A stretch of 64,000 nt of DNA, from contig CAVQOW010000010.1 of assembly GCA_963714605.1 (NCBI GenBank), positions 55,293 to 119,292 on the forward strand, read 5' to 3'. Below, piece by piece: positions 6,152-53,475 of the stretch. The notes under the pieces are model-generated. The model was not told the DNA's origin, made no database searches, and saw only the letters and a program-made list of their open reading frames with translations. Source of the DNA: an uncultured Verrucomicrobiae bacterium (GTDB lineage Bacteria; Verrucomicrobiota; Verrucomicrobiia; Limisphaerales; CAVQOW01). The position numbers were made by a program, and so were the translations under genes. Within the stretch, counting starts at the first letter, position 1. Every line of letters starts with the position of its first letter.

Positions 6152-7192
6152 CGGTTCCGGCGCATCCTTCACGAATTGACAGAAGGCCTCTCACACGTCC
6201 AAACTCGCACAGATTTTACGCGTGAAGTCCATCTCGTCCACGCCATCGTTGCATCCATCGAAAAAATGACATGAAATCCGCGGTGTCAGAGCGAATGCGG
6301 CTCAACGTTCGCGTTCGCGGCGCCGTGCAGGGAGTTGGTTTTCGTCCGTTCGTTTTCCGGCTCGCCACCGAACTCGACCTCGCGGGCTGGGTCAACAACT
6401 CGCCACAAGGCGTTTTCATCGAAGTCGAAGGATCGCGCGATGCCATTGAAAAATTCCTCCTCCGGCTTGAAGTCGAAAAACCGCCGCGTAGTTTCATTCA
6501 AAGCCTCGAAGCATCCTGGCTCGATGCTGTTGGCCACGTTCATTTTAAAATCCGCGAAAGCGAAACCGGCGGCGACAAGACCGCGCTCGTGCCGCCGGAC
6601 ATCGCGACCTGCGCCGATTGCTTCCGCGAAATCTTCGATCCAACCAACCGTCGCTATCATTACCCGTTCACGAACTGCACCCATTGCGGCCCGCGTTTCA
6701 GCATCATCGAATCGCTGCCTTATGATCGGGAGAACACCTCGATGAAGGCGTTCACAATGTGCCCGCAATGCCGGGCCGAGTACGACGACCCGGGCGACCG
6801 CCGCTTCCACGCCCAGCCCAACGCCTGTCCTGTTTGCGGCCCGCAGATCGAACTTTGGGATGGTGGTCGCGCTTGTAAAATCGCGGAAAGTGGGGATGCG
6901 ACAGGACGTCCGCGTTCTCACGAGCGCGGCTACGATGCTTTATTGGCAGCAGTGGATGCCATCCGTCGCGGCCAAATCGTCGCGGTGAAGGGCTTGGGCG
7001 GTTTCCATTTGATGGTGGACGCGCGCAACGACGAAGCCGTCCGCCGACTCCGGGAGCGAAAGCACCGCGAAGAAAAACCCTTCGCACTCATGTTTCCGTC
7101 GCTGGAGAGCGTAAAAGCTGACTGTGAAGTTTCGCCGCTGGAAGAACGACTGCTGCGCTCGCCCGAAGCACCGATCGTTCTCCTTTGGCAAG

Positions 7193-7220
7193 TCCGAAAT
7201 CCGAAACCTGAAATCCGAAA
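7193..7220. repeat. (TCCGAAA)x4 heptamer tandem array inside hypF, encoding ...VRNPKPEIRN...
   Basis: direct reading: tccgaaa tccgaaa cctgaaa tccgaaa. Confidence 0.8.
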
Positions 7221-7518
7221 TTCCTGTGCTCCCGGCAACCCATGCCTCGGTGTCATGCTCCCTTACACACCGCTTCATCACCTGCTTCTGGCTGAGCTCG
7301 GATTTCCCATTGTCGCCACCAGCGGCAATCTGAGCGATGAGCCGATTTGCATTGACGAGCGTGAAGCGATCGAACGTCTCGGCGGCTTCGCCGACGTTTT
7401 TCTCGTTCACAACCGTCCCATCGTTCGCCATGTGGACGATTCCGTCGTGCGCGTGATGCTCGGTCGCGAACTGGTTTTGCGTCGGGCGAGAGGGTTTGCC
7501 CCGTTGCCAATTACTTTT

Positions 7519-7553
7519 AAATCGAAAATCGAAAATCGAAAATCGAAAATCGT
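7519..7553. repeat. (AAATCGA)x4 + AAATCGT heptamer tandem array inside hypF, encoding ...FKSKIENRKSKI...
   Basis: direct reading of five 7-nt units. Confidence 0.85.
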
Positions 7554-8312
7554 CTTGGCCGTCGGCGCGCATTTGAAAAACGCCGTTGCCCTCTCGGTCG
7601 GCGACCAGGTTTTCATCAGCCAGCACATCGGCGATTTGGAGACAGAACAGGCATTTGCCGCCTTCCGCCGGGTCATTGCGGATTTTGAAAAACTCTACGG
7701 GGCGAAATCGCGAAATAATCGCTGCTGATTTGCACCCGGATTACCTTTCGACGAAATTGCGAGAGTGGCGCGCGAAGGCAAGAGTACGCATCTTGAGGCC
7801 GGAAACCTGCGCTACATAAGTGTCCAGCACCATATTGCACACGTTCTGTCATGCATGGCGGAAAATGAGTTATCGCCGCCAGCGCTCGGTGTGTCGTGGG
7901 ACGGCACGGGCTACGGCTTGGACGGAACGGTTTGGGGCGGAGAATTTTTTCTTGTCACCGACAAAAGCGTCGAGCGCGTTGCACATTTCCGCCCGTTTCG
8001 GTTGCCTGGCGGAGACAAGGCCGTCAAAGAACCGCGCCGCGCGGCGGCAGGATTGCTTTACGAGATGTTTGGTGCGGCAGTGTTTGAACGAAAAGAGTTA
8101 GCGCCCGTCGCGGCATTTTCGCCCGGTGAACTATCCACACTGAAAGCAATGCTCGCGCGTAATCTTAACTCGCCTTTTTGTTGCAGCGTCGGCCGGTTGT
8201 TTGACGCCGTCGCTTCGCTGACAAATTTCCGCCAGCAAATCCGCTTCGAAGGGCAGGCCGCAATGGAACTGGAGTTCGCGCTGGAGGGAATCGAAACTGA
8301 CGAAGCTTATGA

Positions 8313-8389
8313 ATTGCGGATTGCGGATTGCGGATTGCCGGAATCGTCGCTCGACGGAAATCCGAAATCCGAAATCCGAAATCCGCAAT
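8313..8389. repeat. 77-nt palindromic element: (ATTGCGG)x3 ATTGCCG, 17-nt spacer, (AAATCCG)x4, inside hypF
   Basis: inverted heptamer arrays able to fold as a hairpin; the hypF frame switches from 1 to 0 exactly here (77 mod 3 = 2). Confidence 0.8.
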
Positions 8390-8706
8390 TATCTTGGACT
8401 GGTCGCCGATGATGGAAGCGATGCTGGCCGACATGCAAAGCGGCATTTCCGTCGGCAAATTTCCGCCAAGTTTCACAACGCTTTGGTCGGAAGGCATCAT
8501 CGCCGTCGCCAAACGTGCCGGCCAAACGCGGTGGTGCTTTCAGGCGGCTGTTTTCAGAATCGTTATCTTACTGAGCGCGCGGTGCGACGACTGCAGGTGG
8601 AGGGATTCCGTCCCTATTGGCATCAGCGCGTGCCGCCCAACGACGGCGGCATTGCCTTGGGCCAAGTCATTGCCGCGCGGCGCGAGAAGGGGTAGAATGA
8701 CAAGAC

Positions 8707-8965
8707 ATGTGTCTGGCCATTCCAGGAAAAATTGAAAGCATCAGCGGCGATGAGCCGCTGTCGCGCACGGGCAAGATCAATTTCGGCGGCATCCTCAAGG
8801 AAGCCTGTCTCGCCTACGTGCCCGAAGCGAAGGTCGGCGATTATGTCATCGTCCACGTCGGCTTCGCCCTCAGCCGGGTGGACGAGGACGAGGCGCACAA
8901 GGTTTTCGAGTACTTGAAGGAGATGGAGGAACTCGGCGAGCTGGGAGATGGAATCCGGCCCATGA
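8707..8965 (+). CDS. hypC: hydrogenase maturation factor HypC; runs through into hypD in this sequence, probably a 1-nt indel near its 3' end
   Basis: MCLAIPGKI... N-terminus typical of HypC/HupF; an out-of-frame TGA at 8963-8965 forms a canonical ATGA overlap with the hypD start. Confidence 0.6.
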
Positions 8966-10065
8966 AATATCTCGACGAATATCGCGACGGGGAGCTAGCG
9001 CAACAATTCGCGCGGGAGATCCATCGCGTCACGACCCGGCCGTGGAACATCATGGAAGTCTGCGGCGGCCAGACGCACGCCATCGTCAAGTTCGGCATCG
9101 ATGAATTGCTGCCCAAAGCCATCACGCTGATTCACGGTCCGGGCTGCCCGGTCTGCGTGACGCCGTTGGAAATGATCGACAAGGCGCTGGAGATCGCGGC
9201 GCGGCCCGGCGTGATTTTTGCCTCGTTCGGCGACATGCTGCGCGTGCCCGGCAGCACGACGGATCTGCTTTCGGTCAAAGCCAAGGGCGGCGACGTGCGA
9301 ATCGTTTATTCGCCGCTGGATGCGGTGAAGATGGCGGAACAAAATCCGGCCAAGGAGGTGGTTTTCTTCGGTGTCGGTTTTGAAACCACCGCGCCGGCAA
9401 CCGCGATGGCGGTTTATCAGGCTGCGCAGAAAGGCCTGAAGAATTTTTCGATGCTCATTTCGCACGTGCTCGTGCCGCCGGCGATCGAAGCGCTGATGTC
9501 GTCGCCGAACTGCAAGGTGCAGGGATTTCTTGCCGCCGGGCACGTCTGTGCCGTGATGGGCTACGAGGAATACCCGCCCATTGCGGCGAAATATCACGTA
9601 CCGATTGTCGTCACCGGTTTCGAGCCACTCGATATTTTGCAGGGCGTGCTGATGGTGGTGCAGCAACTGGAATCCGGCCGGGCCGAGGTTGAAAATCAAT
9701 ACACCCGCGCCGTGCGCCGCGAAGGCAACCAGCCGGCGCAGGAGCTGATCCGCAAGGTTTTCAAGGTCGTGCCCCGCAAGTGGCGCGGCGTCGGCGAAAT
9801 TCCGCAGAGCGGCCTCGGTTTGAACGACGCCTATGCCGCGTTCGACGCCGAAAAAAAATTCGGCCTGGCCGACCATCACGTTGACGAACCGGCCGAATGC
9901 CTCAGCGGCCTGGTTTTGCAGGGACAAATCAAACCGCACGAATGCCCGGCCTTCGGCACGCGCTGCACGCCGGAGCATCCACTCGGCGCGACGATGGTGT
10001 CATCCGAAGGCGCGTGTGCGGCGTATTACCGCTACCGGAGGCAACCGGCTGAAGCTGGAAAATGA
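8962..10065 (+). CDS. hypD: hydrogenase maturation factor HypD
   Basis: MKYLDEYRD... start; GPGCPVCV and other conserved HypD Cys motifs. Confidence 0.85.
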
Positions 10066-10079
10066 ATTATTTATGCGGG

Positions 10080-10181
10080 AACATCGAACATTGAACATCG
10101 AACATCGAACATCCAATTTCATTTGGATGGTCGGGGACAAGACATTCGATGTTGGGCGTTGGGCGTTGGATGTTGGATGTT
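10080..10181. repeat. about 100-nt palindromic element between hypD and hypE: (AACATCG)x4 AACATCC, 32-nt spacer, CGATGTT (GGGCGTT)x2 (GGATGTT)x2
   Basis: inverted heptamer arrays read directly; located in the 130-nt hypD-hypE spacer. Confidence 0.8.
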
Positions 10182-14159: not shown

Positions 14160-14412
14160 TTCGTAGCGAGAAAACCGCAGAAAAGAAGCGGCGGGAATCT
14201 AACAGAGACGGGTTAAGTGTCAACGAATCAGTCGCCCCGGCGACCCGAAAGGCAAAAAACGCGCAATCAAAACCAAAATCCGTGGAAAAATAGGTTAAAC
14301 CACGAATTCACACGAACGAATTTCACCGCAGAGACGCCAAGACGCGGAGTCAAACCGCGAAATACACGAACCACACGAAATCTTTGACGCGAATTGTGAA
14401 CAACCCAAGCTT

Positions 14413-15689
14413 GTGTCTGGTAAGATGCTTCGTTATCCTGGCGTCGTGTTGCGGGCGTCGAAAGCTAATCGTGGTGCGGCGATAACAGCGAGACAGCGCG
14501 TGATTGTGCCTGATTCTCTGGTCGCCGCCGTGTCCAACTCGGGACAAGGTTACGGGCGCACCTCACGATTTCTACCGCTATCCCGCCAGATTCTCGCCGG
14601 TCTTCGCGCGCGAGGCGATCAGAACATTTCACCAAGCCAGGTGACTTTGTTCTCGATCCATTTTGCGGCGGTGGCACAACGCTGGTGGAAGCATTGTCGC
14701 TTGGTCGTCGTGCCGCCGGAATGGATGTAAGTTCGCTCGCCGCTTTTCTGGCGCGGACAAAGACGACGCCGATTTCAGTGCGCGACAAGCGGGAAATTGC
14801 CGAATGGCTCGCCACTTTGGAAAAGGAAAATCCGAGGGCAAATCTTGATTCTTACGAAGCCGTTGACGCCGAGACTTATTATTATCTCCGCAATCTACCT
14901 GATGAAGCGCGAGCTTTTTTCTTCTGGGTCTTTGAACGTCTGACGAATTTACCAACATTGAGGCAGCAAAAATTTGTGCGGCTTGTTCTTCTTGGCGCTG
15001 GGCAATGGGGGCTGGATTGTAAGAACAAAGTGCCGACGACTGCTGAATTCAAAGCCGAGTTCTGCCAACGTCTCAACGCCGCAACCAACGATTTCTTTGA
15101 TTACGTTTCAGCCATCGCAGCCGCGAACGAACTGCCACGTTGCCAGTTGTCATCAATGCGGCGCGTCATTAATCGCTCGTCTGAAAAATGCGGTGAGGAT
15201 GGGCGGATTCCAGAGTCGTGGCTTCCGGCCAAACTCGTTTTGACTTCGCCGCCGTATCCGGGTGTTCACGTGGTTTACCATCGCTGGCAGATTCTTGGGC
15301 GCAAGGAAACGCCTGCTCCGTTCTGGTTGGCGAACCAGCGCGATGGTGCGGGCGAATCGCATTATCTTCTTGGCCCGCGTGATGAAGATGAGTTGGTGAC
15401 TTACTACGCGCGGCTCAAGTCCGTGTTTTCGTCGGTTCGGGCGTTGCTCGACGAAAATTCCATCGTTGTGCAACTTGTCGCGTTTTCAGACCCGGTGTGG
15501 CAATTAAAGACCTACCTCGAAACAATGAAAGAAGCCGGTTTCATCGAGGCGGAAGCAGATTGCGTCGCGTCAGCCAAAGTGCACGGACGAATTTGGCGGG
15601 AAGTTCCCGGTCGCAAGTGGTATGCGAATAAGCGCGGCGAGATTCCAGCGAGTAAAGAAGTGATGCTCTTGCACAAACTCGCAACGTAA
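14413..15689 (+). pseudogene. alpha-class DNA amino-methyltransferase; frame break near 14645
   Basis: motif I DPFCGGGTT (in frame only after a 1-nt correction) and motif IV TSPPYPG in the 14685..15689 ORF; N-terminal 80 aa in the adjacent frame. Confidence 0.6.
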
Positions 15690-15692
15690 GCC

Positions 15693-16823
15693 TCACGTTG
15701 CTTCGCCTGATGCCGAACCAGCAGCGACCTTTTCTTCATCAAGCGCACCCAGCGCATCAATCATCGGTAAAAGAAATGGCGCGAACGCCTTTGTTACTTC
15801 GGCCACACGCTGTTCGATGCTTTGCTTGGACGCAGCATCTTCATCCTCTTTCTGGGCGGCTTGTTCCTTGCGTTCAAGATTGTCTTGGTAAATCAACGCC
15901 AGACCGGTGAGCATCATTCCCAATTCAAAACGCGACCTGGCAACCTTGTCGTCTTCGCCGCTACGGAGTTCATACTTCAGAAACCGTTGAAGATGGATGT
16001 TGTCGGCATTGATGAAAAAATCATACACGACTTTGTCTGGCTCACCGTTCCCCGTATCCGCGCCCTTACCGCTGTCTTTCACGATAAGCGCTGTGTGTTT
16101 GTCGAACGGTGGACTTTGATTGCTCCACTGATCTTCTGTGATGCGAATACATTCCGGCAATTCAAGTCCGCCGGGCATTTCGCGCTCATCGCCTTCATCT
16201 CCTTTGGGCGGCCTTTTCCGCTCACCTTTGCCTCCGGCTGACTCGGCCGGCTTCTGAAGCAAAACGGAAAATGTGTTCTCGAATGGTTGTAGTTGCGTTG
16301 CGTCGTCCACGACTGCGACGAATTTCACCTTGTCGCCGACCTTGCAGCTTTCGGGAAACTTTATACTCAAGTTCGCAATGCCATTTTGAAGATTCACATT
16401 GCTTGCGAAGTCCAAATCCTTCACCGGACGTTGCTCCGCTCCGTCGAGGACATAAAGTGTGAACGTACCTGGGTCAATGCTGCGGCTGAAATAATCATTC
16501 ACAGCGTCCGTCTCAAACGCAATGCGGCAACGCATGTTAATGTGCGCTTCGCGGGCGAGTTCGCTGCCGTGATCTCTGCCTTTGAATTTAAAATAGGTGG
16601 GATAAGTTTTGCCTTCGTATGGTTTTTCTCCTGCGCCCGCTTTGGCTTGCTTAAAGGGATTTGATGCGTGCTTACCGAACAGGAACAGATTGGCCAGCGT
16701 CGGAGAATGTTTTAGAAGTGACTCCAGAATCTGTTCAAGAGGCTTTGAGTCTTCCATCCGTGATTCAATTTCTTCCCGCCGCCGGCGTTCGCGCAGAGCT
16801 TTTAGTCCCGGCTGATTTTTCAA
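15693..16823 (-). CDS. uncharacterised acidic protein, translationally coupled (ATGA overlap) to the upstream GHKL ATPase gene
   Basis: 376-aa ORF; no recognisable catalytic motif; overlaps the 16820 gene by 4 nt. Confidence 0.45.
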   Translation of the reverse strand: MKNQPGLKALRERRRREEIESRMEDSKPLEQILESLLKHSPTLANLFLFGKHASNPFKQAKAGAGEKPYEGKTYPTYFKFKGRDHGSELAREAHINMRCRIAFETDAVNDYFSRSIDPGTFTLYVLDGAEQRPVKDLDFASNVNLQNGIANLSIKFPESCKVGDKVKFVAVVDDATQLQPFENTFSVLLQKPAESAGGKGERKRPPKGDEGDEREMPGGLELPECIRITEDQWSNQSPPFDKHTALIVKDSGKGADTGNGEPDKVVYDFFINADNIHLQRFLKYELRSGEDDKVARSRFELGMMLTGLALIYQDNLERKEQAAQKEDEDAASKQSIEQRVAEVTKAFAPFLLPMIDALGALDEEKVAAGSASGEAT

Positions 16824-18226
16824 AAATCTTCAAGCTCCTGTTCAAGTTGTTTGCGGAGTTCGCCATCCCGCAGCCGATCACGGCTGTTCATGAAAAGCAA
16901 TTCACGCCCACGGCCAGTAATCTTTGTGCAGTCAACAATTACTAAAACCGAATCAGCGAGATATGAAAGCCCAACTCGTGTTCGCCGGAAAAAATCCAGT
17001 GTGAGATACCCATGCGTCTGTCCATTCACTGTAAAAATGATGCCCTCGGATTTGCGATACGTCTCTGCCCGACCTTTTTTGAAAGCGAAAATTGTCGCAG
17101 TCATCGGCTCACCAGCGCAGGTCATCTCGACAGAAACGGGAAAATCCGGTTCAAGATTATCACCTTTGCCTTGTTCGAGGCGGATGGCAAAGCCAGCAAG
17201 ATTGGTTTCATAACTGCGATCTTCATCACCGCGATATGCCGCTCTACATTCGTGGAGTCGAATGGGCAAAGCAGGTTCAGGAATCAAAACTTCCAAACGT
17301 GCCAGAAGGCCACTTTTGCGCAGGATGTGCGAGCGGTGTCCGGGCATCAAATACTCATAGAGTTTGATGAGCGAGCCAAATTCGGCTTCGCGGGCATAAG
17401 GATTCGCGCCATCGGGGAAGATTGGCATCGTGTCAGATGCGAAAGTGAGAACCTCGCCTTGCTGCGGTCTTTCATCCGCGCCGACTGGCGCAAGAAAGGT
17501 ATAGGAAGAACTCCGGCGATTTCCAGAAGGGTCTTCTCGGCGCACTATGGTAAATCCCCATTCGTCATCGGTAGGGTGAGCAAAATTGCCGTTAAGAATT
17601 CGCGGACTGCGACGGCTTAAAATCAGTTGTAAATTCTTATGTCCGCAAAATTCCAAAACGCCTGTGCCGCCCATGTTGAATTTACCCTGAACAAAAGGAA
17701 TGCGAAGTTTGTTAGACTTTTCCAACGAGAGAAACGTATCAGGAAATTTGCGAGGAGTCTGACCTTCGCCCCAATCAGCAATTGTGATGCAAGGATCGCC
17801 GTCTTGAACTTTCATGCCAGTTGCGGCGAGAGTGATACCGCGAGCGACGTCGCGACGCTTTTCATTATCCCACGCGCTGATTTGTCCACCGAAGATGCTG
17901 CCGCTAGCGCTTCTGTCTTCAAAAAACCGCGCTACTGCTTCGCGAATGCTCTGTGGTGCAGTTGGTGATTCTGGATTATTGCCGCGAGCCAAACACTCAT
18001 GCATCAGTCGTGCATCTACCGAATTGACCAACTTTTCAACGAGAGCGGCGTCTGGCCTGTTTTGTTGGTTGCCGATGGTGCTGAAATTATTTTCTCTGTC
18101 GCCGTAGAGCCGCCAAACACGCTTGTTATTCCAATAGCCAGCCTCAGTTAGGATGCGGACAATTTCCGCTTCGCTGTCCGCTTGCATGAGCGCAAGACAA
18201 AGTTCCTTCTTCTGATTGTTGTTCAT
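16820..18226 (-). CDS. GHKL-superfamily ATPase, MutL/MORC/Hsp90-like
   Basis: Bergerat-fold motifs: N box aLvEkLvNSvDA, G1 ITIADWGEGQT, G2 GKFNMGGTGV; 468 aa. Confidence 0.6.
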   Translation of the reverse strand: MNNNQKKELCLALMQADSEAEIVRILTEAGYWNNKRVWRLYGDRENNFSTIGNQQNRPDAALVEKLVNSVDARLMHECLARGNNPESPTAPQSIREAVARFFEDRSASGSIFGGQISAWDNEKRRDVARGITLAATGMKVQDGDPCITIADWGEGQTPRKFPDTFLSLEKSNKLRIPFVQGKFNMGGTGVLEFCGHKNLQLILSRRSPRILNGNFAHPTDDEWGFTIVRREDPSGNRRSSSYTFLAPVGADERPQQGEVLTFASDTMPIFPDGANPYAREAEFGSLIKLYEYLMPGHRSHILRKSGLLARLEVLIPEPALPIRLHECRAAYRGDEDRSYETNLAGFAIRLEQGKGDNLEPDFPVSVEMTCAGEPMTATIFAFKKGRAETYRKSEGIIFTVNGQTHGYLTLDFFRRTRVGLSYLADSVLVIVDCTKITGRGRELLFMNSRDRLRDGELRKQLEQELEDF

Positions 18227-18241
18227 CGTTTCCCTGCGTTG

Positions 18242-18646
18242 TTATTTCAGCCAGTTGATTTTGATTTCCTTTTCCAATGCCTTGAATTCCGGGTCGCCGG
18301 TGACGAGTTCGACTTTCTTTTCCTTCGCCAGTGCAGCCGCAAAGGCATCGGCCAGGCTGATTTTGTAGCAGGCTTTGAATTCGGCGGCGAGGTCGGCCAA
18401 CCGGCGGGTTGCCGGATGAAATTCGATGGGCGCGGTTTTCAGTTCATTGGCGATGATGGCCCACGCTGCGTCGCCGTCCTTGCGCCGGATGATGTATTGC
18501 ACTTCGGCGTAGTTGACCTCGGTCATGTGGACGGGCTGGTCGCGCTGGCCCGCGCGTTCGAGGATGAGGGACACGCTCTCTCCGCCCGGTTCATCCCGGA
18601 GCAAAGCCAGCAGCGCGTAACTATCGAGAACCGGTGCTGCGGGCAT
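18242..18646 (-). CDS. vapC: PIN-domain toxin VapC
   Basis: 134 aa; acidic PIN residues (LDSYALLAL..E, LADAF); overlaps the upstream small antitoxin gene. Confidence 0.75.
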   Translation of the reverse strand: MPAAPVLDSYALLALLRDEPGGESVSLILERAGQRDQPVHMTEVNYAEVQYIIRRKDGDAAWAIIANELKTAPIEFHPATRRLADLAAEFKACYKISLADAFAAALAKEKKVELVTGDPEFKALEKEIKINWLK

Positions 18647-18914
18647 ACTTGGCTTCCTCCAGTTGTTTTTCCTCGCGCTTGTGTTCGGCCATCTGCTCGG
18701 CGAAAGGCTTTTCGCCCGGCTTGCGTTTCAGGATGCCGCGCAGCCGCCGGATGCTGGTGGCGGTGACGGGCTTGATGAGAATGCCTTCCGGCGTGCCCTC
18801 AACGTAAGCCCGCGTGCCTTCTTCGATTTCAAATTCTTTTCGCAAACGTCGGGGAATGACCACCTGGCCTTTGACCGAAAAACAAACCGTTTCTACCTTT
18901 AGTGCTACGCTCAT
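18621..18914 (-). CDS. vapB: AbrB/SpoVT-type antitoxin VapB
   Basis: 97 aa; swapped-hairpin-like N-terminus (VKGQVVIPRRLRKEF); 26-nt overlap with vapC. Confidence 0.65.
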   Translation of the reverse strand: MSVALKVETVCFSVKGQVVIPRRLRKEFEIEEGTRAYVEGTPEGILIKPVTATSIRRLRGILKRKPGEKPFAEQMAEHKREEKQLEEAKYARSTGSR

Positions 18915-19081
18915 GTCTAAATCCTACATAAAATAAAAAGTAAGGCAAGAACTATTTTGTTGGAAGTTATTCACAGTGTTGCCGTGACTTCTATTGTCAA
19001 AACCCTCGAATATCAACTACATATCATCGTATCAAGATGCGTTGATTTTTTATTTGCCTTCCAGAAAGCTTTCCGTTAGTT

Positions 19082-22000
19082 TTGCGCCGGTTAATTTGCA
19101 TTCAACCGATGCCGGACAGAATCGAACATCTGCAACACCTGTTGCGCGAACGCATCGTCATCCTTGACGGCGCGATGGGCACGATGATCCAGCAACGCAA
19201 GCTGGATGAGGCGGCGTTTCGCGGCGCGCGGTTCGCGGACTGGCGCGGCAAAGACCTAAAAGGGTGCAATGACCTCCTCAATCTCACCCAGCCGCAAATC
19301 ATCGAGGACATCCATCGCCAATATCTCGAAGCCGGCGCGGATATCATCGAGACCAACACGTTCAACTCGCAGTCCATCTCGCTTGCGGATTACGGGCTGG
19401 AATCGCTCGCCTACGAGCTGTCGAAAGCCGGCGCGGAATGCGCGCGTCGCGCTGCCGACAAAGTCATGGCCGCGCAACCGATGCGCGTCTGTTTCGTCGC
19501 CGGCGCGATTGGACCTACAACAAAAACCTCTTCCATCTCGACCGATGTCAACAATCCCGCCGCTCGCGGGACGACTTACGACAAACTGGTCACTGTGTAC
19601 GGCGAACAGATCCGCGGTCTGCTTGACGGCGGCGCGGACTTGCTGTTCGTCGAAACCATTTTCGACACACTGAATGCGAAGGCGGCGTTCTTTGCGATCC
19701 TAAAGTTTTCGAGGATCGCGGCGTCGAGCCGTTCTCTTTTTCCGCCGGAGTTGCTCAATCTCAAATCTCAAATCGCATATCGCAAATTCCAGTGCTCGCA
19801 TCTGTCACATTCATCCAAGCCGGAAGCAATCGCGGTGTTACCGGGCAAACCGTCGAAGCGTTTTGGAATTCCATCTCACACGTGCCGCTATTGAGCGTCG
19901 GCATGAATTGCGCACTTGGGCCGAAAGAATTGCGTCCGCTGATCGAGGAGCTTTCCGGCATTGCGCCGATTTACGTCAGCGCATATCCAAACGCCGGACT
20001 GCCGAATCCGCTCTTGCCGACGGGTTTTCCCGAAACACCGGAAACGCTCGCGCCCCAGTTGCGCGAGTGGGCGCAGAACGGCTGGTTGAACATCGTCGGT
20101 GGTTGTTGCGGCACAACGCCGTCGCATATCAAAGCAATCGCCGGCGCCGTAAAAAATTTGTCGCCGCGCAAAGTTCCGGCGGTTGAGCCTTACCTGCGAT
20201 TGAGCGGGCTGGATGCACTAACCGTGCGTCCGGATTCCAATTTCCTCAACATCGGCGAGCGCACGAACGTCGCCGGATCACCGAAGTTCGCCCAGCTCAT
20301 CAAGGCCGGCGATTACGAAGCCGCGCTGACGGTTGCACGGCAGCAGGTCGAGAACGGCGCGCAGGTCATTGATGTCTGCATGGACGAAGGGATGATAGAC
20401 GGTGTCGCGGCGATGACGCGCTTTCTCAACCTCATCGCCTCCGAACCGGACATCTGCAAAGTGCCGGTCATGGTGGATTCCTCGAAATGGGAAGTCATTG
20501 AGGCCGGATTGAAATGTCTTCAAGGCAAAGGCATCGTCAACTCGATAAGCCTGAAGGAAGGCGAGGAAAAGTTTTTGCATTATGCGAAACTCGTCCGTCG
20601 CTACGGTGCTGCGGTCGTCGTGATGGCGTTTGACGAACGCGGCCAGGCCGATTCGTTCCAGCGTCGCACGGAAGTCTGCAAACGCGCTTACGATTTGCTC
20701 GTCGGTAAAGTTGGTATCCCGCCGCAGGACATCATTTTTGATCCGAACGTGCTGACCGTCGGCACGGGCATGGAGGAACACGCGAATTACGCCGTGGATT
20801 TCATCCGCGCGACAAAGTGGATCAAGGAGAATCTACCTCATGCGAAAGTCAGCGGCGGCATCAGTAATGTTTCTTTCTCATTTCGCGGCAACAACGCCGT
20901 GCGCGAGGCGATGCACAGCGCGTTTCTTTTTCACGCCATCAAGGCCGGACTCGACATGGGCATCGTCAACGCCGGGATGCTGGCGGTCTATGAGGAAGTT
21001 CCGAAAGAGTTTTTGGAATTGGTCGAAGACGTTTTGCTGAATCGCAAACCCGACGCCACCGAGCGGCTCATCAAATTTGCCGAATCGGTGAAGCAAAAAG
21101 GTAAAACCAAAGTCGTCGAGGACGAATGGCGCAAGGGCACGGTTGAGGAACGGCTCAGCCACGCGCTCGTAAAAGGAATCGTGGATTTCATTGATGCCGA
21201 TGTGGAAGAGGCGCGTCAGAAATACGCGAAGCCGCTACTCGTCATCGAAGGCCCGCTCATGGCGGGCATGAATGTCGTCGGCGATTTGTTCGGAGCTGGC
21301 AAAATGTTTCTACCGCAGGTCGTCAAAAGCGCCCGCGTGATGAAGAAAGCCGTCGCTTATCTCCAGCCGTTCATGGAAGCAGAAAAGAAAGCCGCAGGCG
21401 GCACGCACAAAAATGCCGGCAAAATCCTTATGGCTACTGTCAAAGGCGACGTGCATGACATCGGCAAGAACATTGTCGGCGTTGTGCTGGCGTGCAACAA
21501 CTACGAGGTGATTGACCTCGGCGTGATGGTGCCGTGCGAAAAAATCCTCGCCGCCGCCCGCGAACACAAGGTCAACATCATCGGCCTCAGCGGACTCATC
21601 ACGCCGTCGCTCGACGAAATGGCGCATGTCGCCCACGAGATGGAACGCCAAGGTCTGAAGCTGCCGTTGCTCATCGGCGGCGCGACGACGAGCAAAGCGC
21701 ACACTGCGGTGAAGATTGCACCCGGTTACAATCAACCGGTGGTCCATGTCATTGATGCGAGCCGAGCCGTGCCGGTGGTTAGCAATTTGATTAGCACCGA
21801 GCAAAAACCGAAGTTCGCCGCGCGAATCCGCGACGAATACGACCGCGTTCGCGCCCAACACGGTGGTCAAACGGCAAAATTGGTTTCGATTGAGGAAGCT
21901 CGCGCCAACGCGCCGAAACTGAAGTTCGACGATTTGCCAAAGCCGGAGTTCACCGGCGCGCGAAAACTTTGTTCCGATATAGGCACAATTTCGCTGGCCG

Positions 22001-30688: not shown

Positions 30689-30742
30689 ATTTACGATTTA
30701 CGATTTGCGATTTGCAATTGCGATTGCGATTTTCGATTCACG
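30689..30742. repeat. array of about 8 ATTTACG/ATTTGCG/ATTGCG units, abutting the stop of the four-helix-bundle gene
   Basis: direct reading. Confidence 0.8.
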
Positions 30743-31097: not shown

Positions 31098-31100
31098 AGG

Positions 31101-31238
31101 ATTTACGATTTACGCGCGCCTTTTGATCTCGTCATCTGTGACATGAGCGTTGCGCATCTGTTTTCGTTTGAGTTCACAACAACCCAGCAGGCATGGATTT
31201 TCGACAGACTCGTAAATCGTATATCGTAAATCGTCAAT
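31101..31238. repeat. inverted heptamer arrays (ATTTACG x2 ... CGTAAAT CGTATAT CGTAAAT CGTCAAT) flanking a 96-nt core; between the four-helix-bundle gene start and the flotillin stop
   Basis: direct reading. Confidence 0.8.
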
Positions 31239-32762
31239 TTATTCGTCTTTTTTGCCCATCGCCTTTTTAAGTGCGGGGACTTGTTCCAGCAATTTCTCAA
31301 ACTTTACGCCGGTCAAACTTTCCAACACCGGCGGCAACTGGCTGATGATGGTCGTCACGTCGCCGGTGAGCTTGCTCGCGCCGCCGCCCGGCCCGTTGCC
31401 GGAATTGATGATGACCATCTTCTCAGTCTTGCTGAGCGGCTCGCTGATCTTGCCAGCGACTTCCGGCAGCACGCGCACAATCATTTCGATGACGGCGGCC
31501 TCGTTGTATTGCTTGAAGCTTTCGGCTTTGTTCTTCATCGCCTCGGCAGTCGCCTTGCCTTGCGCTTCGATGACGGCGGCTTCGGCCAGACCACGCGCTT
31601 TGTTCGCTTCGGCTTCGGCGATACCGGTGGCCTTGGCGACATCCGCGTTGGCAAAACCTTTGGCCTTGGCGGCGGATGCAGCGCCAGCGGCTTCGGTTTC
31701 GAGTTGGAACTTCGTGGCGTTGGCGAGCGTCTCGACTTTGTAGCGTTCGGCGTCGGCGGGTTTCTGGACGTTGGCTTCCAGTTCGCGCTGCTTTCGTTGA
31801 ATTTCCTGCTGTTGCAGCTCGATTTGCTTCTGCTTCTCGATGATTTGCACCTGCACTTCTTCCGCTTTCACCAACTGGCCGGTCTTGAATTTCTGCAAAT
31901 CATACGCGAGGTCGGCCTCGGCTTTCTTCTGATTCACCGCGGCCTGATATTGCGCGACGTTGGATTGATAATCGCGTTGCGCCTCGGCGACCTTGGTGTC
32001 GGCGGCAAACTTCGCTTCCTGTCCAGCCTGCGTGGCTTGTGACGACTTGATCATCGCGTCGCGGTCGGCTTCGGCCTGCGCGATCTGCGCGTCGCGTTTG
32101 ACCTGCGCGATACGCGGTTTGCCGAGCGCTTCGAGGTAACCCTGGCTGTCGCGAATGTCCTTGATCGTGAAGCTGACGATGCCGAGACCCATGTTGGCCA
32201 TGTCGCCCGCGGCGACTTCCTGAACCTTGGAAGCGAAGGCATCGCGGTTCTGATAAATGTCCTCGACGGTCATCGTGCCGAGGATGGCGCGAAGATGGCC
32301 TTCAAGCGTTTGCATCGCGACCCCTTTGATTTCATCGGTCGTTTTGCTGAGGAATTGCTCGGCGGCGGTGGCGATTGAAACGTCATCTCCTTTGACCTTG
32401 ATTTGCGCCACGCCATCCACGCGCACCGGCACGCCCTTGCTGGTATAGACATCCTGCTCCTGCTGCACGTCAATGGTGAGCAGTTCGAGCGACAGAATGT
32501 CCACCTTTTCAAAGACCGGCCACACGAAGACGCCGCCGCCTTTGACAATGCGGAAGCCGACGTCGCGCGCCGCGCCGTCCGGATCCACGATGCGGTGTTT
32601 GCGCCCGGAAATGACGAGCACCTGGTTCGGGCCGACCTTGGTGTAGCGGCTCGCCCAAATACCGGCGAAGATGAAGAAGACCAGCATGAGCGCGCCCACG
32701 CCCATGATGACGGTCAGCCATGGAATTTCGCCTGCAACGGCAAGAATAGGAGTCAGGTTCAT
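31239..32762 (-). CDS. flotillin-like SPFH/band-7 protein
   Basis: N-terminal TM, SPFH domain, long EA-rich coiled-coil (FloT/YuaG-like). Confidence 0.85.
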   Translation of the reverse strand: MNLTPILAVAGEIPWLTVIMGVGALMLVFFIFAGIWASRYTKVGPNQVLVISGRKHRIVDPDGAARDVGFRIVKGGGVFVWPVFEKVDILSLELLTIDVQQEQDVYTSKGVPVRVDGVAQIKVKGDDVSIATAAEQFLSKTTDEIKGVAMQTLEGHLRAILGTMTVEDIYQNRDAFASKVQEVAAGDMANMGLGIVSFTIKDIRDSQGYLEALGKPRIAQVKRDAQIAQAEADRDAMIKSSQATQAGQEAKFAADTKVAEAQRDYQSNVAQYQAAVNQKKAEADLAYDLQKFKTGQLVKAEEVQVQIIEKQKQIELQQQEIQRKQRELEANVQKPADAERYKVETLANATKFQLETEAAGAASAAKAKGFANADVAKATGIAEAEANKARGLAEAAVIEAQGKATAEAMKNKAESFKQYNEAAVIEMIVRVLPEVAGKISEPLSKTEKMVIINSGNGPGGGASKLTGDVTTIISQLPPVLESLTGVKFEKLLEQVPALKKAMGKKDE

Positions 32763-32793
32763 AGGATGATTTATTGGTTTGGGTTTGGATGAT

Positions 32794-33351
32794 TTACTTC
32801 ACAAGTTCCACGAAAAATTGAGTGCCGACGACACGCGTGATTTTGACCGTCGCCCCGGCGGGAACGGCGACGCCTTTCTCGGAACGCGCGGGCGCGGTAT
32901 AACGGGTGCTGGATTGCACGTAGGCGATTTCGCCAACGCCGTTCTCAGGAATCGGCGTAACGATGGAGGCGGCCTGGCCAACCAAGGTCGCCACTCGGGA
33001 TTCGCTGGAGCTTTGCGTCTTGCTGAACATCGTGTTGAACAGCCAGAACGCAGCCCGAGCGATGCAAAGGCCGCCGACGATCGAAAGCGGCGCGCTGACC
33101 CAGCCGCTCGAAGTCGGCTCAATCCGGCTGAAAATGATGCCCAACGCGCCAAATGCGGTGACGAATGTGGCGAGCACCGTGGGGCTGAAAAAAGAAATCC
33201 CCGGCATGCCGCTGTGATCAAAGCCCGCTTCGGCGTGTCCGCCCGTTCCAACGTCAACGTGGCCGTCATGGCCGCCGAAGAAGTGGCCGGCGACGGCGCT
33301 AATGAGAGTGAAAAGAAGACCGACGACCAGACAGATTGCGTAAATTATCAT
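32794..33351 (-). CDS. NfeD-family membrane protein (YuaF-like), operon partner of flotillin
   Basis: 2-3 TM helices and C-terminal OB-fold-like region; conserved nfeD-floT gene order. Confidence 0.7.
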   Translation of the reverse strand: MIIYAICLVVGLLFTLISAVAGHFFGGHDGHVDVGTGGHAEAGFDHSGMPGISFFSPTVLATFVTAFGALGIIFSRIEPTSSGWVSAPLSIVGGLCIARAAFWLFNTMFSKTQSSSESRVATLVGQAASIVTPIPENGVGEIAYVQSSTRYTAPARSEKGVAVPAGATVKITRVVGTQFFVELVK

Positions 33352-49542: not shown

Positions 49543-51318
49543 TTAGCTTGGCGTTGGTTTATCCGGTTTGGAATTCAGCATTTTATCCTTCTGCGGCTCA
49601 ACGTCCAATGGATGTTCCTCTTCATGCCAATGCTTCGAGACGCGGCCATCCCAGCAAGCCATATTCAGGGGATACACATCGGGATCAAAAATAACGTGGT
49701 AGAAGTGCCACACAACAATCGCCAGGCACGCCAGAACGGCTTCGTAATAATGAATCGTCAGTGCCACGTCCACCGCCCAGCGCGGCAGCCATTGCGTCAC
49801 GTCCATCTTGAACCAGATCATCAGTCCCGTAATGCCCATGATGATCGTGCCCCACACGACCGCCCAGTATTCCATTTTTTCCGCGTAACCAAATCTGCCG
49901 AGCTTTGGCTTTTCCTTGCTTAACCCGACGAGATAACGAATCGCGGTCCATACATCGGCCAAATCCTTTTTTACGGGGAACAAATCCATCACCAGCTTGC
50001 GCCCGTCCTTTGATGCGAGAATATAAATCACGTGATAAGCGCCGACCGCAAGCAATACAATGCCGGCAATACGATGACTCCAGCGCCGGAACGGTTCGCT
50101 CGAACCGAGCAGCCTCGCCACCCCTGAATCGGGAAACTTCAATGCAAATCCCGTGATCGCCAGCGTGACAAAACTCAAAGCAAGCACCGCATGTTGCCAA
50201 CGCTGCGCAAGGCTCATGCGCAAGACCGGTCTCCCGCTGGAACGCATGTGTGCGCTGACTTTCTTGAGAAACAACAGGAGGTTGTGCACAAACATCGCGC
50301 CAACCACACCGACGATCAGCATCAGATAAATCCGGCGCACCCACCAGTTGATCTGGTCGCCAATATCGGGCCCGCTTTTTGTGGCAGTGATGTCTGTGTG
50401 AATTTTGCCGAAAGCGAATTTCTCGTTGGCGCCGGGATGACATTTCCCGCATGTCTCGACAATATGGGCTTTGTTGATCGTTGAGTCCGGATCGGAGGAA
50501 GGCAGAATTTTGTGATAGCCGTGGCAGCTTGCGCAGTTGGCCGCAACCGTCGAACCGTAAGCAACCGCAAGACCGTGGTAGCTTTCAAAGAAGGTCTGCA
50601 CGCGGTCGGCAGGCAGATTGTACTTGGTATTGATTCGTTCCGACGCATGGCAGCGGCTGCATACGTCCTCGGAAATTTTCAATGAGGAATTCCCGCTCAA
50701 AGCCTGAATCTTGTGCTCCGAATGGCAGTCTGTGCAGGTCGGTGCCTCGCGTATGCCGGCTGCGGTCGCCTGGCCATGCACACTTTTCTCGACGTCGCGC
50801 GCTTCCTTCTCGTGGCACCGGCCGCAAGTTTCCGCAAGTCTGGAGAAGTAGAGTGGCGATTCAGGCGATGTCGGCGGCAGAAGTTCGTGCGAATCGTGGC
50901 AATCCACACACGTGGCCGAATCCAATTTCCCGGCGAGTATCGCCTGACCATGAATGCTTGCACCATAGGTTTCCGACTGCTTTGGGTGGCATTTGGCGCA
51001 AACAACTTTCTGCGCGGGCAGATTGTCGTCGGGATGCGTTGATTTGAGATCCGTGTGGCAGCTCGCGCAGGTATTCGTCCTGTGAACGGAAACTGCAAAT
51101 TTCGCTCCATCCACGAACAAGGAAACCTCTTTTCCCGCCGCGTTGGTCTTCGTGAGCGTTTTGTCGGAGTGACACTCCAGACAGTCGCTGTTCCTCATTG
51201 CATCAGCTGAAGTAACGTTCAGTGCAGCAACGGCTAAAAGGCCAAAAATGCCCTTCGCATTCAGACAGCATTTCGACAATTTCTGCATGACAATTTTCTT
51301 TCGCCTACGGGCCGGCAA
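49543..51318 (-). CDS. CbcL-like fusion: periplasmic 9-haem c-type cytochrome domain plus 5-TM dihaem b-type cytochrome (FdnI/HydC-like) domain
   Basis: nine CxxCH motifs; C-terminal TM helices with conserved His. Confidence 0.65.
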   Translation of the reverse strand: MPARRRKKIVMQKLSKCCLNAKGIFGLLAVAALNVTSADAMRNSDCLECHSDKTLTKTNAAGKEVSLFVDGAKFAVSVHRTNTCASCHTDLKSTHPDDNLPAQKVVCAKCHPKQSETYGASIHGQAILAGKLDSATCVDCHDSHELLPPTSPESPLYFSRLAETCGRCHEKEARDVEKSVHGQATAAGIREAPTCTDCHSEHKIQALSGNSSLKISEDVCSRCHASERINTKYNLPADRVQTFFESYHGLAVAYGSTVAANCASCHGYHKILPSSDPDSTINKAHIVETCGKCHPGANEKFAFGKIHTDITATKSGPDIGDQINWWVRRIYLMLIVGVVGAMFVHNLLLFLKKVSAHMRSSGRPVLRMSLAQRWQHAVLALSFVTLAITGFALKFPDSGVARLLGSSEPFRRWSHRIAGIVLLAVGAYHVIYILASKDGRKLVMDLFPVKKDLADVWTAIRYLVGLSKEKPKLGRFGYAEKMEYWAVVWGTIIMGITGLMIWFKMDVTQWLPRWAVDVALTIHYYEAVLACLAIVVWHFYHVIFDPDVYPLNMACWDGRVSKHWHEEEHPLDVEPQKDKMLNSKPDKPTPS

Positions 51319-51325
51319 TACCAGA

Positions 51326-53475
51326 TCAATGCGCCAAACGCGAAACCATTGCGTAAATGATCAGGATGAGCAGGATGACCCCAAGGCCGAAGAAGAAATA
51401 GCCAAAGGAGCGGGCGATGTTTTTCCAGCTCTCCCATTCGTCTTTGACGCGATGTTTGTCCAATCGGCCATCGGTCACGAGCCGGTCGTACCAACGTTTG
51501 CGGTCGTGAAGCATCTCGGTCTTCGAGATGCGACCGGAGAAGATGACCGTGTCCATCGGGAATTTTTCGATGCGGAAATGCGTGTTGAAGAAATGAATCG
51601 AGAAGATGAAGCCCGCCGCCAGCAATGCCTCGTCCGAGTGGATGATAAGCGCGATGTTGATGACCCAGCCCGGCAGAAATTTCGTGAAGAATACCGGAAA
51701 CCACATGATTAAACCCGACGTGCCTATGATGGCGACGCCCCAAAAGACGGCAAAGTAATCGAATTTTTCCCAATACGTCCAGCGGTCGAACATCGGTTTC
51801 CCGCCCTTGCCGAAAAACCATTTGTTGTGCGCAACGAAATCGCGCCAGTCCTGCCACGTCGGCATCATCGAATCCGGGCCAAACAAAACGCTCCACAAAC
51901 GTTTCAATTGCAACCTGCCGCTTGCAGGGTCGCGCAACCTGCTCTTGCCCTTCCATGCCTTGCCGATGAGCGACGCGACATGCAGACCGAAGTAAAGGAA
52001 CGTGATAATCGCGCCGAAGCGATGCAGCGTGCGCGCCGTTTCTGCGCCACCGATGACGTTGAAAAGCGCTTTGGCCCAGTCGGTGTAATAAAATTTGAGC
52101 GGCATGCCCGTGATGACCAGCAGCAGAAAGCTGGTCACAACCAGAAAATGCAGGAAACGCTCGAACGGCACGAAGCGCGTGAACCATTCGTCGTCTTCCT
52201 CAGTGCGCACCTTCGCCTCGCGGAATGTCTTCGTGTCGTGCAGATATAAATAAAACGCGCGGAACAGCCAGACGAGGGTGTGCAGTCCGAAAAACGTGAA
52301 CACACCAATCAGCAAGCCGGTCATGCCCAGAAAAACCGCGTGGAGGACCGGATAATTTTTCCCATCGAGCGGATTAGCGTGCGGCCGGTATTGCGTGAAA
52401 CCAATCGTCGCGCCCGGATGACATTGCTGGCATGTGGCCAGAATATTGGTTTTGGAAAGACGCGAACCCGGGTCTGATTGCGGCAGCACGTCGTGATAAC
52501 CGTGGCAGTCGTAACACGCGGCTACCGCCGGGGCTGCGTTCGGTTTGCCCAGCGCCATCGCCTTGCCGTGATACGTTTCGCGGTAGTGTGCCAGGCGGTC
52601 TTCGTGACATTTGCCGCACCGCTGATCGCTGATGGCCTTGAAGTTGTTGCCTTCGGGGTTCTCGATTTGGTGCGCCGTGTGACAGTCCGTGCAAACGGGC
52701 CCGCGCTTGTCGCCTTTGGCCAGAAGCTGCCCGTGGACGCTTTGATTGTAGGTTTCCTCGATGCCGACGTGGCACTTGCCGCAGGTCTTGGCGACGTTGG
52801 CGTGATTGATGGGTGAATCGCGATCCACGCCTCGTTTGATATCGTGGACACCATGGCAATCGTTGCACGACGGCGCGACAATGAGGCCCATCTTCAATAG
52901 CGCCTGCCCGTGGATGCTGTCCATGTATTGTGCCGCGGCCTCGGGATACTTCATTTCGTATTCCTTCGTTAGCCCCGGGTTGCTGTGACATTTCGCACAG
53001 GTCTGCGGCAGGTTGAGCTTGAACACCGGCGAGTTGGGATTTTTCACCGGCAAAATGTCATGCGAACCGTGGCAGTCGCAGCAATTGGCTGCGCCGGAGG
53101 CGTCCCAATGTATGACTCACACCGTGAATACTACCGGCGTAGTCCTCGGCCTCTTTCTCGTGGCAACCGACGCAATTCGGCGGCGGCAGTTTGCTTTCAT
53201 GAACGAGGTCTTTGATGCCCGTGTGACAATCCTGACACGACAGTTTGGCGTGAACCGACTTCGCAAATTGGTTCGTCGGAAAAACAGCCATTGGCACACT
53301 CTGCCCGTTGACCTTTCGCGAATTGCCCGGATCGGTATGGCAGTCGAGGCAGTCGGCGTTGGCGAATTTTTCCCCCGCGGGCTTTGGAAAATTGGCTGAA
53401 GCCAATGCACAGCAGCAAAGAGAAAATGACTTTGCACAATTTCCCCGGTGAAACGCGTGTTGTGGCCGGATTCAT
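51326..53475 (-). pseudogene. second CbcL-like multihaem c / cytochrome b fusion; frame breaks near 53060 and 53385
   Basis: signal peptide in one frame (KVIFSLLLCIGFSQFSKA), about 10 CxxCH across frames, b-type membrane domain in ORF 51326..53053. Confidence 0.6.

Follow-up and report, generated by a model that had tools for sequence, protein, structure and literature searches.

The DNA analysed here, a stretch of 64,000 nucleotides (nts) from contig CAVQOW010000010.1 of an uncultured Verrucomicrobiae bacterium (hereafter the window), contains hypF, the gene of the carbamoyltransferase HypF, in which tandem arrays of 7-nt units occupy three sites and the reading frame changes several times. 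The region is the hypF of a Limisphaerales-type verrucomicrobial metagenome-assembled genome (MAG). The gene starts at 6271, and its stop codon (8693-8695) comes after the last homologous codon; when the frames are joined, tblastn coverage extends over residues 8-844 of the protein P0002. The closest non-self HypF sequences are Limisphaerales/Verrucomicrobiota proteins with 73-81% identity, and the PDB entries matched by HypF are 3vth, 4g9i and 3tsp. The HypF domain set, consisting of acylphosphatase, Zn-finger, YrdC-like and Kae1-like HypF_C domains, was found by Pfam in one polypeptide both in the window and in the orthologues; PF00708, PF07503, PF01300 and PF17788 were recorded on P0001, the window's own HypF call of 477 aa. 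The gene and its arrays are the following:

6271..8695, + strand: hypF, carbamoyltransferase HypF (reading frames, Pfam, tblastn)
7193..7221, + strand: site-1 array, TCCGAAA x 4.1, in-frame translation QVRNPKPEIRNS, in the loop that follows PIVLL (Tandem Repeats Finder)
7519..7552, + strand: site-2 array, AAATCGA x 4.9 with 100% matches, in-frame translation KSKIENRKSKI, in the loop flanked by APLPI and LAVGAHLKN (Tandem Repeats Finder)
8313..8340, + strand: left arm of site 3, given by Tandem Repeats Finder as ATTGCGG x 3.7 at 8313-8338 and made of ATTGCGG x 3 plus an irregular 8-nt attgcCgg, read as RIADCGL in the upstream frame
8338..8357, + strand: apex of site 3, ccggaatcgtcgctcgacgg, within which the discontinuity from frame 1 to frame 0 must fall
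8357..8389, + strand: right arm of site 3, GAAATCC x 4.7, read as KSEIRNPKSAI in the downstream frame (Tandem Repeats Finder, frame reading)

An initial annotation of this DNA had already reported arrays at these places, where Tandem Repeats Finder recovered them, and the in-frame translations that it gave for the two solo arrays, WQVRNPKPEIRNS and FKSKIENRKSKI, are correct. The four hypF arrays have a period of 7 and are composed of 3.7-4.9 head-to-tail copies with 81-100% matches. The solo arrays of sites 1 and 2 are predicted to be unstructured (fold z > 0). When compared with dinucleotide shuffles, the window contains 7 strict arrays of period 7 versus 0.0 in the shuffled sequences, and zero strict arrays of periods 6 and 8-12; the enrichment specific to period 7 holds across 85 loci as well.

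The site-3 hairpin and the reading frames of hypF

The two arrays of site 3 are inverted with respect to each other. Their arms (8312-8336 and 8366-8390) are 92% complementary, and the hairpin that they are predicted to form has a folding energy of -43.8 kcal/mol on either strand (z = -6.2 versus shuffles). Homologous inverted-array hairpins of about 70-100 nts occur in frame, at the identical site, in five related loci (L001, L006, L007, L008 and L056). That of L001 measures 75 nts, lies in frame between the same anchor codons and has the same arms (ELRIADCGLRNGSKSEFRNPKSEIV); those of the other four are longer or variant, and all are in frame. In both arms the number of units in the window equals that of L001, from which the window differs by one extra c (attgcCgg) and by a loop 7 nts longer. 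Furthermore, both arms of the window sit in their orthologous frames, RIADCGL on the left and KSEIRNPKSAIILDW on the right, and therefore the break is confined to the apex, between 8338 and 8357. The distance between the MELEFAL and LDWSPMM anchors is 152 nts in the window, that is 51 codons minus one nt, and ranges from 47 to 58 codons in the in-frame relatives. Residence in frame within a protein, as in Rickettsia palindromic elements (RPE), is seen in the five loci and in dozens of proteins, while the window as written has a net -1 in the apex. From the alignment, we conclude that the hairpin (8311-8393) is the orthologue of the in-frame hairpins of the relatives and was present before the frame was broken. 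The extra c of attgcCgg was considered as the sole correction at site 3 and rejected, since its removal yields frame 2 and not frame 0; comparing the symmetry of the two arms did not locate the missing base.

As written, hypF does not form one uninterrupted reading frame but passes through frames 1/2/1/0/2/0/2 (position mod 3), with six switches. Frame 1 extends from 6271 to ~7711, frame 2 to ~7759 and frame 1 again to ~8337; beyond the apex, frame 0 runs from ~8358 to ~8456, frame 2 to ~8488, frame 0 to ~8529 and frame 2 to the stop at 8695. The gene was aligned at the DNA level against three orthologues (L001, L002 and L004), and the switches correspond to these indels:

7710..7712, + strand: indel 1, an extra g between cgc and aaat, frame 1 to 2 (DNA alignment with L001, L002 and L004)
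7757..7760, + strand: indel 2, a base probably missing between ttg and cgag, frame 2 to 1; restoring a g gives STKLARVAREGK... (frame reading)
8338..8357, + strand: indel 3, the discontinuity in the hairpin apex, frame 1 to 0, probably net -1 or +2 (frames of the arms compared with orthologues)
8457..8462, + strand: indel 4, a base missing in aaattt, frame 0 to 2 (DNA alignment with orthologues)
8489..8490, + strand: indel 5, an extra g between gtc and gaa, frame 2 to 0 (DNA alignment with orthologues)
8529..8531, + strand: indel 6, a base missing between cgcg and gtggtg, frame 0 to 2 (DNA alignment with orthologues)

Relative to the orthologue DNA, indels 1, 4, 5 and 6 are single-base events. 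The first stop codon of hypF as written (7726-7728, after 485 codons) is due to the first two indels, a compensating pair (+1 at ~7712, -1 at ~7759/7760) that had been overlooked in the earlier tally of frames. Once repaired, the gene encodes a protein of 809 aa without stop.

These results modify the initial picture, of which the arrays, their translations and the switch from frame 1 to frame 0 stand, whereas the number of switches and their exact coincidence with the 77-nt element do not. Frame 1 indeed precedes the element and frame 0 follows it, but the switch takes place inside the apex; downstream, where four more frame changes within 150 nts had been counted, we find three (8457-8462, 8489-8490 and ~8530), spanning ~75 nts. 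The statement that 77 mod 3 = 2 predicts the switch is true as arithmetic. As an argument from the length of an insertion it is circular because the element predates the break, and the loss of 1 nt from an in-frame element of 78 nts would leave 77 nts too. The alignment to orthologues, which had been proposed as a check, identifies a hairpin that is not new at this site, and a discontinuity of net -1 or +2 in its apex.

Period-7 arrays in HypF orthologues and at other loci

For comparison, we assembled 113 full-length HypF orthologue proteins and 83 non-redundant genomic loci, the latter from at least 8 phyla. In the proteins, the three segments corresponding to the array sites carry, in frame, peptides with a 7-residue periodicity (for example IRNPKSEIRN, IANRKSQIAN, IGNRQSAIGN, LSTLNSQLST, KSKVQSPKSK and NPQPSTLNPQP), and lag 7 is the dominant self-match at all three sites, not in a control linker. 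The suggestion that the solo arrays are tolerated in linker segments of HypF is supported: they probably lie in indel-tolerant loops, where most of the 113 orthologues have 7-aa-periodic peptides. One length class dominates at site 1 (37 aa in 78 of the 113 proteins) and at site 2 (30 aa in 64), and variants differing by 7 aa in either direction were not seen at these two sites in the whole set. At site 3, a short form of 35 aa devoid of the hairpin is present in 41 orthologues. The three sites fall on alignment gaps with respect to the solved HypF structures 3vth and 4g9i, and the loops are hypervariable, with about 9 to 70 residues across phyla. An AlphaFold2 model of the orthologue P0011, based on an alignment of 48 sequences, reached a predicted local distance difference test score (pLDDT) of 42, too poor for judging the exposure of the loops.

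At the DNA level, period-7 arrays of about 31-35 nts are found in identical columns of the orthologues, with units that differ between genomes. A gap-free alignment of site 1 from the window and 6 orthologues shows AAATC to be invariant in every unit, whereas the other two positions read CG throughout in the window and in L004, and GC or GT in the rest. Read from these aligned units, the pattern is one of concerted change between genomes. Across the 83 loci, hypF contains 50 strict period-7 arrays, distributed over 29 loci, with a density of 2.57 per 10 kb compared with 0.39 in the flanks. They map to residues 294-297, 402-406 and 689-696 of P0011, plus one at 502, and the loci belong to Verrucomicrobiota, Ignavibacteria, Bacteroidota, Chlorobi, Acidobacteriota, Calditrichia, Chloroflexi and Cyanobacteria. 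In 81 of the 83 loci hypF stays in a single frame through the arrays. HypF identity to the window's protein is 59-78% (loci L001-L085), unusually high for a comparison across phyla, and the comparison suggests that the hyp cluster may have spread horizontally among soil and sediment bacteria.

In some genomes a unit is shared between HypF sites: AATCCGC at sites 2 and 3 of L002, AACTCCG at sites 2 and 3 of L056 and, in the window, AAATCCG, which site 1 has in common with the right arm of site 3. Such sharing hints at a possible exchange between HypF sites. Other palindromic repeats fill the same loops in some genomes. A GC-rich palindromic repeat, translated in frame as ...RPHPGPLPQERENxxP...CSLSPGERVRVRA..., occupies site 1 of L007, L009, L011, L013, L014, L024 and L037, and is also present in the hypD-hypE spacer of L001 (13975-14115); its hosts are one MAG labelled Dongiaceae, one labelled Akkermansia, and Verrucomicrobiota.

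The repeat class is not confined to hypF. Three further members in the window are:

10079..10181, + strand: hairpin in the hypD-hypE spacer, GAACATC x 5 facing GATGTTG x 4.9 (-45.8 kcal/mol, z = -6.1)
19757..19787, + strand: period-7 array in metH, in frame, within a segment inserted with respect to the usual MetH loop
45155..45180, + strand: weaker period-7 array in ispG/gcpE, in frame (NLQPSTFNLQPS)

Of the hypD-hypE spacers compared, those of the window, L004, L006 and L009 contain a heptamer hairpin, that of L001 a GC-rich palindrome unrelated to it, and that of L002 is free of such elements. Two intergenic repeats were also noticed in the window: an array of ATTTRCG, about 7 units long, whose sequence passes into its own near-complement (30689-30738), and an inverted pair, GATTTAC / TCGTAAA, at 31100-31114 and 31210-31238, about 95 nts apart and downstream of a flotillin-like gene (31242-32798, - strand). 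Outside the window, the exact pattern ATTGCGG x 3.4 occurs in at least 120 metagenome contigs. Among the matches listed, none is located in hypF; of 136 arrays, 117 are 4-5 units long, 64 lie no more than 200 nts from a partner array, and most are inside open reading frames (ORFs). Where the ORF scores well as coding, the sense strand is the A-rich one (SAIRNPQ) in 67 cases and its complement (RIADCGL) in 25; in 45 cases a clear ORF is lacking. Rfam matched no family anywhere in the window, and CsrA-type GGA motifs, considered as a function of the arrays, were discarded because they are present only in the left arm of the hairpin.

A mechanism by which such arrays would persist can be outlined as follows. 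Three loops of HypF, apparently free of sequence constraint (one after PIVLL, one after APLPI and one between YEL and LDWSP), are encoded by arrays of ~4.5 units, with two inverted arrays making a hairpin in the third. The arrays belong to a dispersed period-7 class, common in soil and sediment bacteria and mostly residing in ORFs, and repeats of this class would last wherever a protein accepts any hydrophilic loop. Selection at the protein level cannot keep a 7-nt periodicity because successive copies of a unit pass through all three frames. The periodicity would thus have to be kept at the DNA level, through homogenisation of the slippage or conversion type or through related arrays taking their place. 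Total length and frame, on the other hand, would be kept by selection. For homogenisation, the puzzle is a length that stays fixed although every one-unit slip is a frameshift.

A stronger proposal is that the arrays are more than tolerated: they would be an ancient feature of a HypF clade that has spread horizontally, and their maintenance would take place at the level of DNA or RNA. It builds on the persistence of the perfect 7-nt periodicity across at least 8 phyla despite 35-40% protein divergence, and on units that are replaced in concert at a fixed length; nevertheless, we find it rather doubtful. If true, it would call for an active homogenising or targeting mechanism, or for a function, with transient, slippage-based ON/OFF switching of all [NiFe]-hydrogenase maturation and an mRNA signal at domain boundaries as candidates, and the broken site-3 hairpin of the window could then be a real OFF state.

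Origin of the frame breaks

Frameshifts were counted throughout the window by combining a codon-score screen of ORF pairs with Pfam profile coordinates, an approach whose counts are a lower bound. About 12 single-base indels were found, most of them at short homopolymers; 6 are in hypF and at least 6 elsewhere, the latter placed by Pfam coordinates and frame reading as follows:

~12850: ppdK, ccggg to ccgg
~16800: large low-GC gene (~1100 aa)
~19700: metH, aagg to aag
~23700: MFS gene, ttt to tt
~26285: folE2
~43590: rseP, cccc to ccc

The indels of ppdK, metH, the MFS gene and rseP are at homopolymers of 2-4 nts. Homopolymer indels that interrupt housekeeping genes are indicative of consensus errors of the assembly, and the census suggests an error rate of roughly one indel per 5-10 kb.

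The indels of hypF are most likely assembly errors as well, because the conserved motifs stay perfectly encoded in the shifted frames; this holds for the invariant motifs DLHPDYLST, FHNAL and VVLSGGCFQNRYL. Among 374 columns with a conservation of at least 97%, the repaired HypF deviates in 7, two of them being repair joints; at the same columns the orthologues have on average 2.7 deviations, with a 95th percentile of 6. The neighbouring hypD and hypE are intact and, respectively, 94-96% and 85-88% identical to their relatives. Frame switches are also found in other assemblies: in L047, a long-read 'MFD' MAG, inside its site-3 hairpin insert, in L038 at an A7 run just downstream of site 3, and several truncated HypF calls in the databases are frameshifted in conserved, non-repeat parts. 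Taken together, these data lead us to regard the hypF indels as probably being consensus errors of the long-read type, with a real gene that is probably intact, even though our confidence in this is far from complete. Much the same can be said of the explanation as a whole, namely that old in-frame arrays, an orthologous hairpin and error-type indels jointly account for the locus, which we consider reasonably probable.

Several points weigh against this explanation. First of all, hypF has 6 indels in 2.4 kb as compared with about one per 10 kb elsewhere, a strong cluster that is unexplained, and the extra g at 7712 and that at 8489 are outside classic long homopolymers. Secondly, the HypF identity between the window and the orthologues is 0.77-0.79, versus 0.81-0.83 among the orthologues themselves, whereas for HypC, HypD and HypE the window is at least as close to L004 as the orthologues are among themselves; this difference could reflect a slight relaxation of hypF. 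Finally, both the status of the indels as errors and the homogenisation of the arrays are deduced from assembled sequence.

Alternatively, hypF could be a genuine, recently inactivated pseudogene whose six indels are all, or for the most part, real mutations, perhaps favoured by a sequence that is rich in repeats and bears a hairpin, or by a lost need for hydrogenase maturation. Such inactivation would be in line with the accumulation of 6 of the ~12 indels in 4% of the window length, four of them within 200 nts at or just after the hairpin, and with a HypF slightly more divergent than HypC, HypD and HypE predict; moreover, hydrogenase structural genes, hypA and hypB were not found in the 64-kb window. 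However, six neutral indels should be accompanied by tens of substitutions, and yet the repaired frames are devoid of stop codons, the invariant motifs survive perfectly in the shifted frames and the deviation at conserved columns is within the range of the orthologues. In addition, hypC, hypD and hypE are intact and highly conserved, and like indels split metH, rseP, ppdK and folE2. Overall, a pseudogene appears unlikely, although it deserves to be kept in mind.

Far less probable is phase variation, whereby slippage by one heptamer (7 = 1 mod 3) would toggle hypF and, with it, all [NiFe]-hydrogenase maturation, the window representing an OFF allele. The unit length is indeed not a multiple of 3, one added unit (84 nts) would restore the frame by arithmetic, and the arrays are perfect or near-perfect, as would be expected if some homogenising slippage takes place. 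Furthermore, heptanucleotide tracts are reported to drive phase variation elsewhere, for example in neuO of E. coli K1 (PMC13001214). On the other hand, the arms match those of the in-frame L001 in unit number, and the break is in the non-repeated apex instead of being a change of whole units. The tracts are only about 4.5 units long, their length is nearly invariant among the 113 orthologues, which include no variants of 7 aa more or less, and 81 of the 83 loci are in frame through the arrays; besides, the five hypF indels outside the repeats would be left without explanation.

The least tenable alternative is the disruptive insertion initially envisaged, in which a 77-nt palindromic element (77 = 3 x 25 + 2) entered an intact hypF and shifted its frame: although the frame does change from 1 to 0 across the element as 77 mod 3 = 2 would have it, the class shows presence/absence polymorphism elsewhere (e.g., in the hypD-hypE spacer) and site 3 is short and without hairpin in 41 of the 113 orthologues, relatives with 73-81% protein identity hold the homologous hairpin in frame at the exact site, the break is internal (8338-8357) with both arms framed as in these relatives, so that the total length of the element is not its cause, and the five other hypF indels need a separate cause anyway.

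We thus retain consensus errors as the probable origin of the breaks, and caution that this hypF should not be called a pseudogene, or the victim of a mobile element, without reads.

Neighbouring genes and related repeat systems

Immediately downstream of hypF, hypC and hypD are written as one ORF of 452 codons (8707-10065), in which ...GELGDGIRP is directly followed by MKYLDEYRD...; the hypC stop codon and the 36-85-nt hypC-hypD spacer found in L001, L002 and L004 are missing. This single ORF could be either a real in-frame fusion or a deletion in the assembly. Further on, the segment ~14200-18250 is a low-GC island that escapes gene finding based on GC3. It encodes a DNA methyltransferase on the + strand (about 14400-15700, with DPFCGGGTT ... 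SPPY motifs) and an unannotated gene of ~1100 aa on the - strand, and is adjoined by a MazE/PIN toxin-antitoxin pair (18245-18923, - strand); the whole resembles an acquired island of defence or restriction-modification genes. At 49546-53116 (- strand) there are two adjacent paralogous genes of ~600 aa, each with multihaem cytochrome c motifs (c7/c3, paired CXXCH) and a cytochrome b domain of the Ni_hydr_CYTB type.

Three loops of one conserved enzyme, encoded by 7-nt arrays across many phyla, offer a clean natural system for two questions: why period 7 is the favoured long repeat of bacteria, a fact noted since 2007 and unexplained, and how repeats are homogenised inside a reading frame in which each one-unit slip is a frameshift. 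They would also be a further case of selfish repeats within coding sequence, outside Rickettsia.

Heptameric repeats are over-represented in many bacteria, mostly with about 4 units and in some cases inverted; the GGGAATC arrays of Xanthomonas, for instance, have mostly four units, sometimes form inverted pairs and have no known cause, and a link between the heptamer bias and the polymerase footprint has been proposed (PMC4692102). We found no direct report, in the literature, of heptamer arrays in hypF, Verrucomicrobia or Planctomycetes. The arrays described here resemble the bacterial heptanucleotide simple sequence repeats (SSR), such as the short tandemly repeated repetitive (STRR) sequences of cyanobacteria, the GGGAATC repeats of Xanthomonas and the GGGGA(C/T)T repeats of Nostoc, in their 7-nt unit, their excess of period 7, their ~4 units, their dispersal over many loci and the occurrence of inverted pairs able to form stem-loops. 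Unlike these SSR, which are mainly intergenic and G-rich, they are made of A-rich AAnTCnn units within coding sequence, and lie in frame at three fixed loops across phyla with units that appear to change in concert. They also do not appear to be cyanobacterial STRR in the strict sense, which have the specific units of heterocystous cyanobacteria: the units here are TCCGAAA, AAATCGA, ATTGCGG and GAACATC, and the host is verrucomicrobial.

With SSR contingency genes such as neuO of E. coli K1, hypF shares a tract inside the reading frame whose unit is not a multiple of 3, but it differs from them in the absence of copy-number polymorphism among orthologues, in its short tracts and in a break that does not involve a whole unit. 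The hairpins are also reminiscent of repetitive extragenic palindromic (REP) sequences, REPIN and miniature inverted-repeat transposable elements (MITE), because they are short, show presence/absence polymorphism at orthologous spacers and are replaced by different types in the same spot. In contrast to these elements, their arms are internally tandem-repetitive, and neither terminal inverted repeats with a target-site duplication nor a transposase were noticed, no systematic search having been made.

RPE, which Ogata and colleagues reportedly presented in Science in 2000, are selfish palindromic DNA residing in frame in protein-coding genes. The site-3 element is like them in being a hairpin repeat within an ORF, translated as an extra segment, presumably at the surface, that does not destroy the protein, in having counterparts in several unrelated genes and in using landing sites that are used by different elements too. 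However, RPE measure 100-150 nts, have a unique palindrome and belong to one genus, whereas the hairpins described here measure about 70-100 nts, have arms of tandem heptamers and extend over many phyla. Bacterial heptanucleotide repeats and RPE-like in-frame palindromes are kinds already known, and the part worth following is the cross-phylum, site-specific and concerted pattern of the arrays in HypF.

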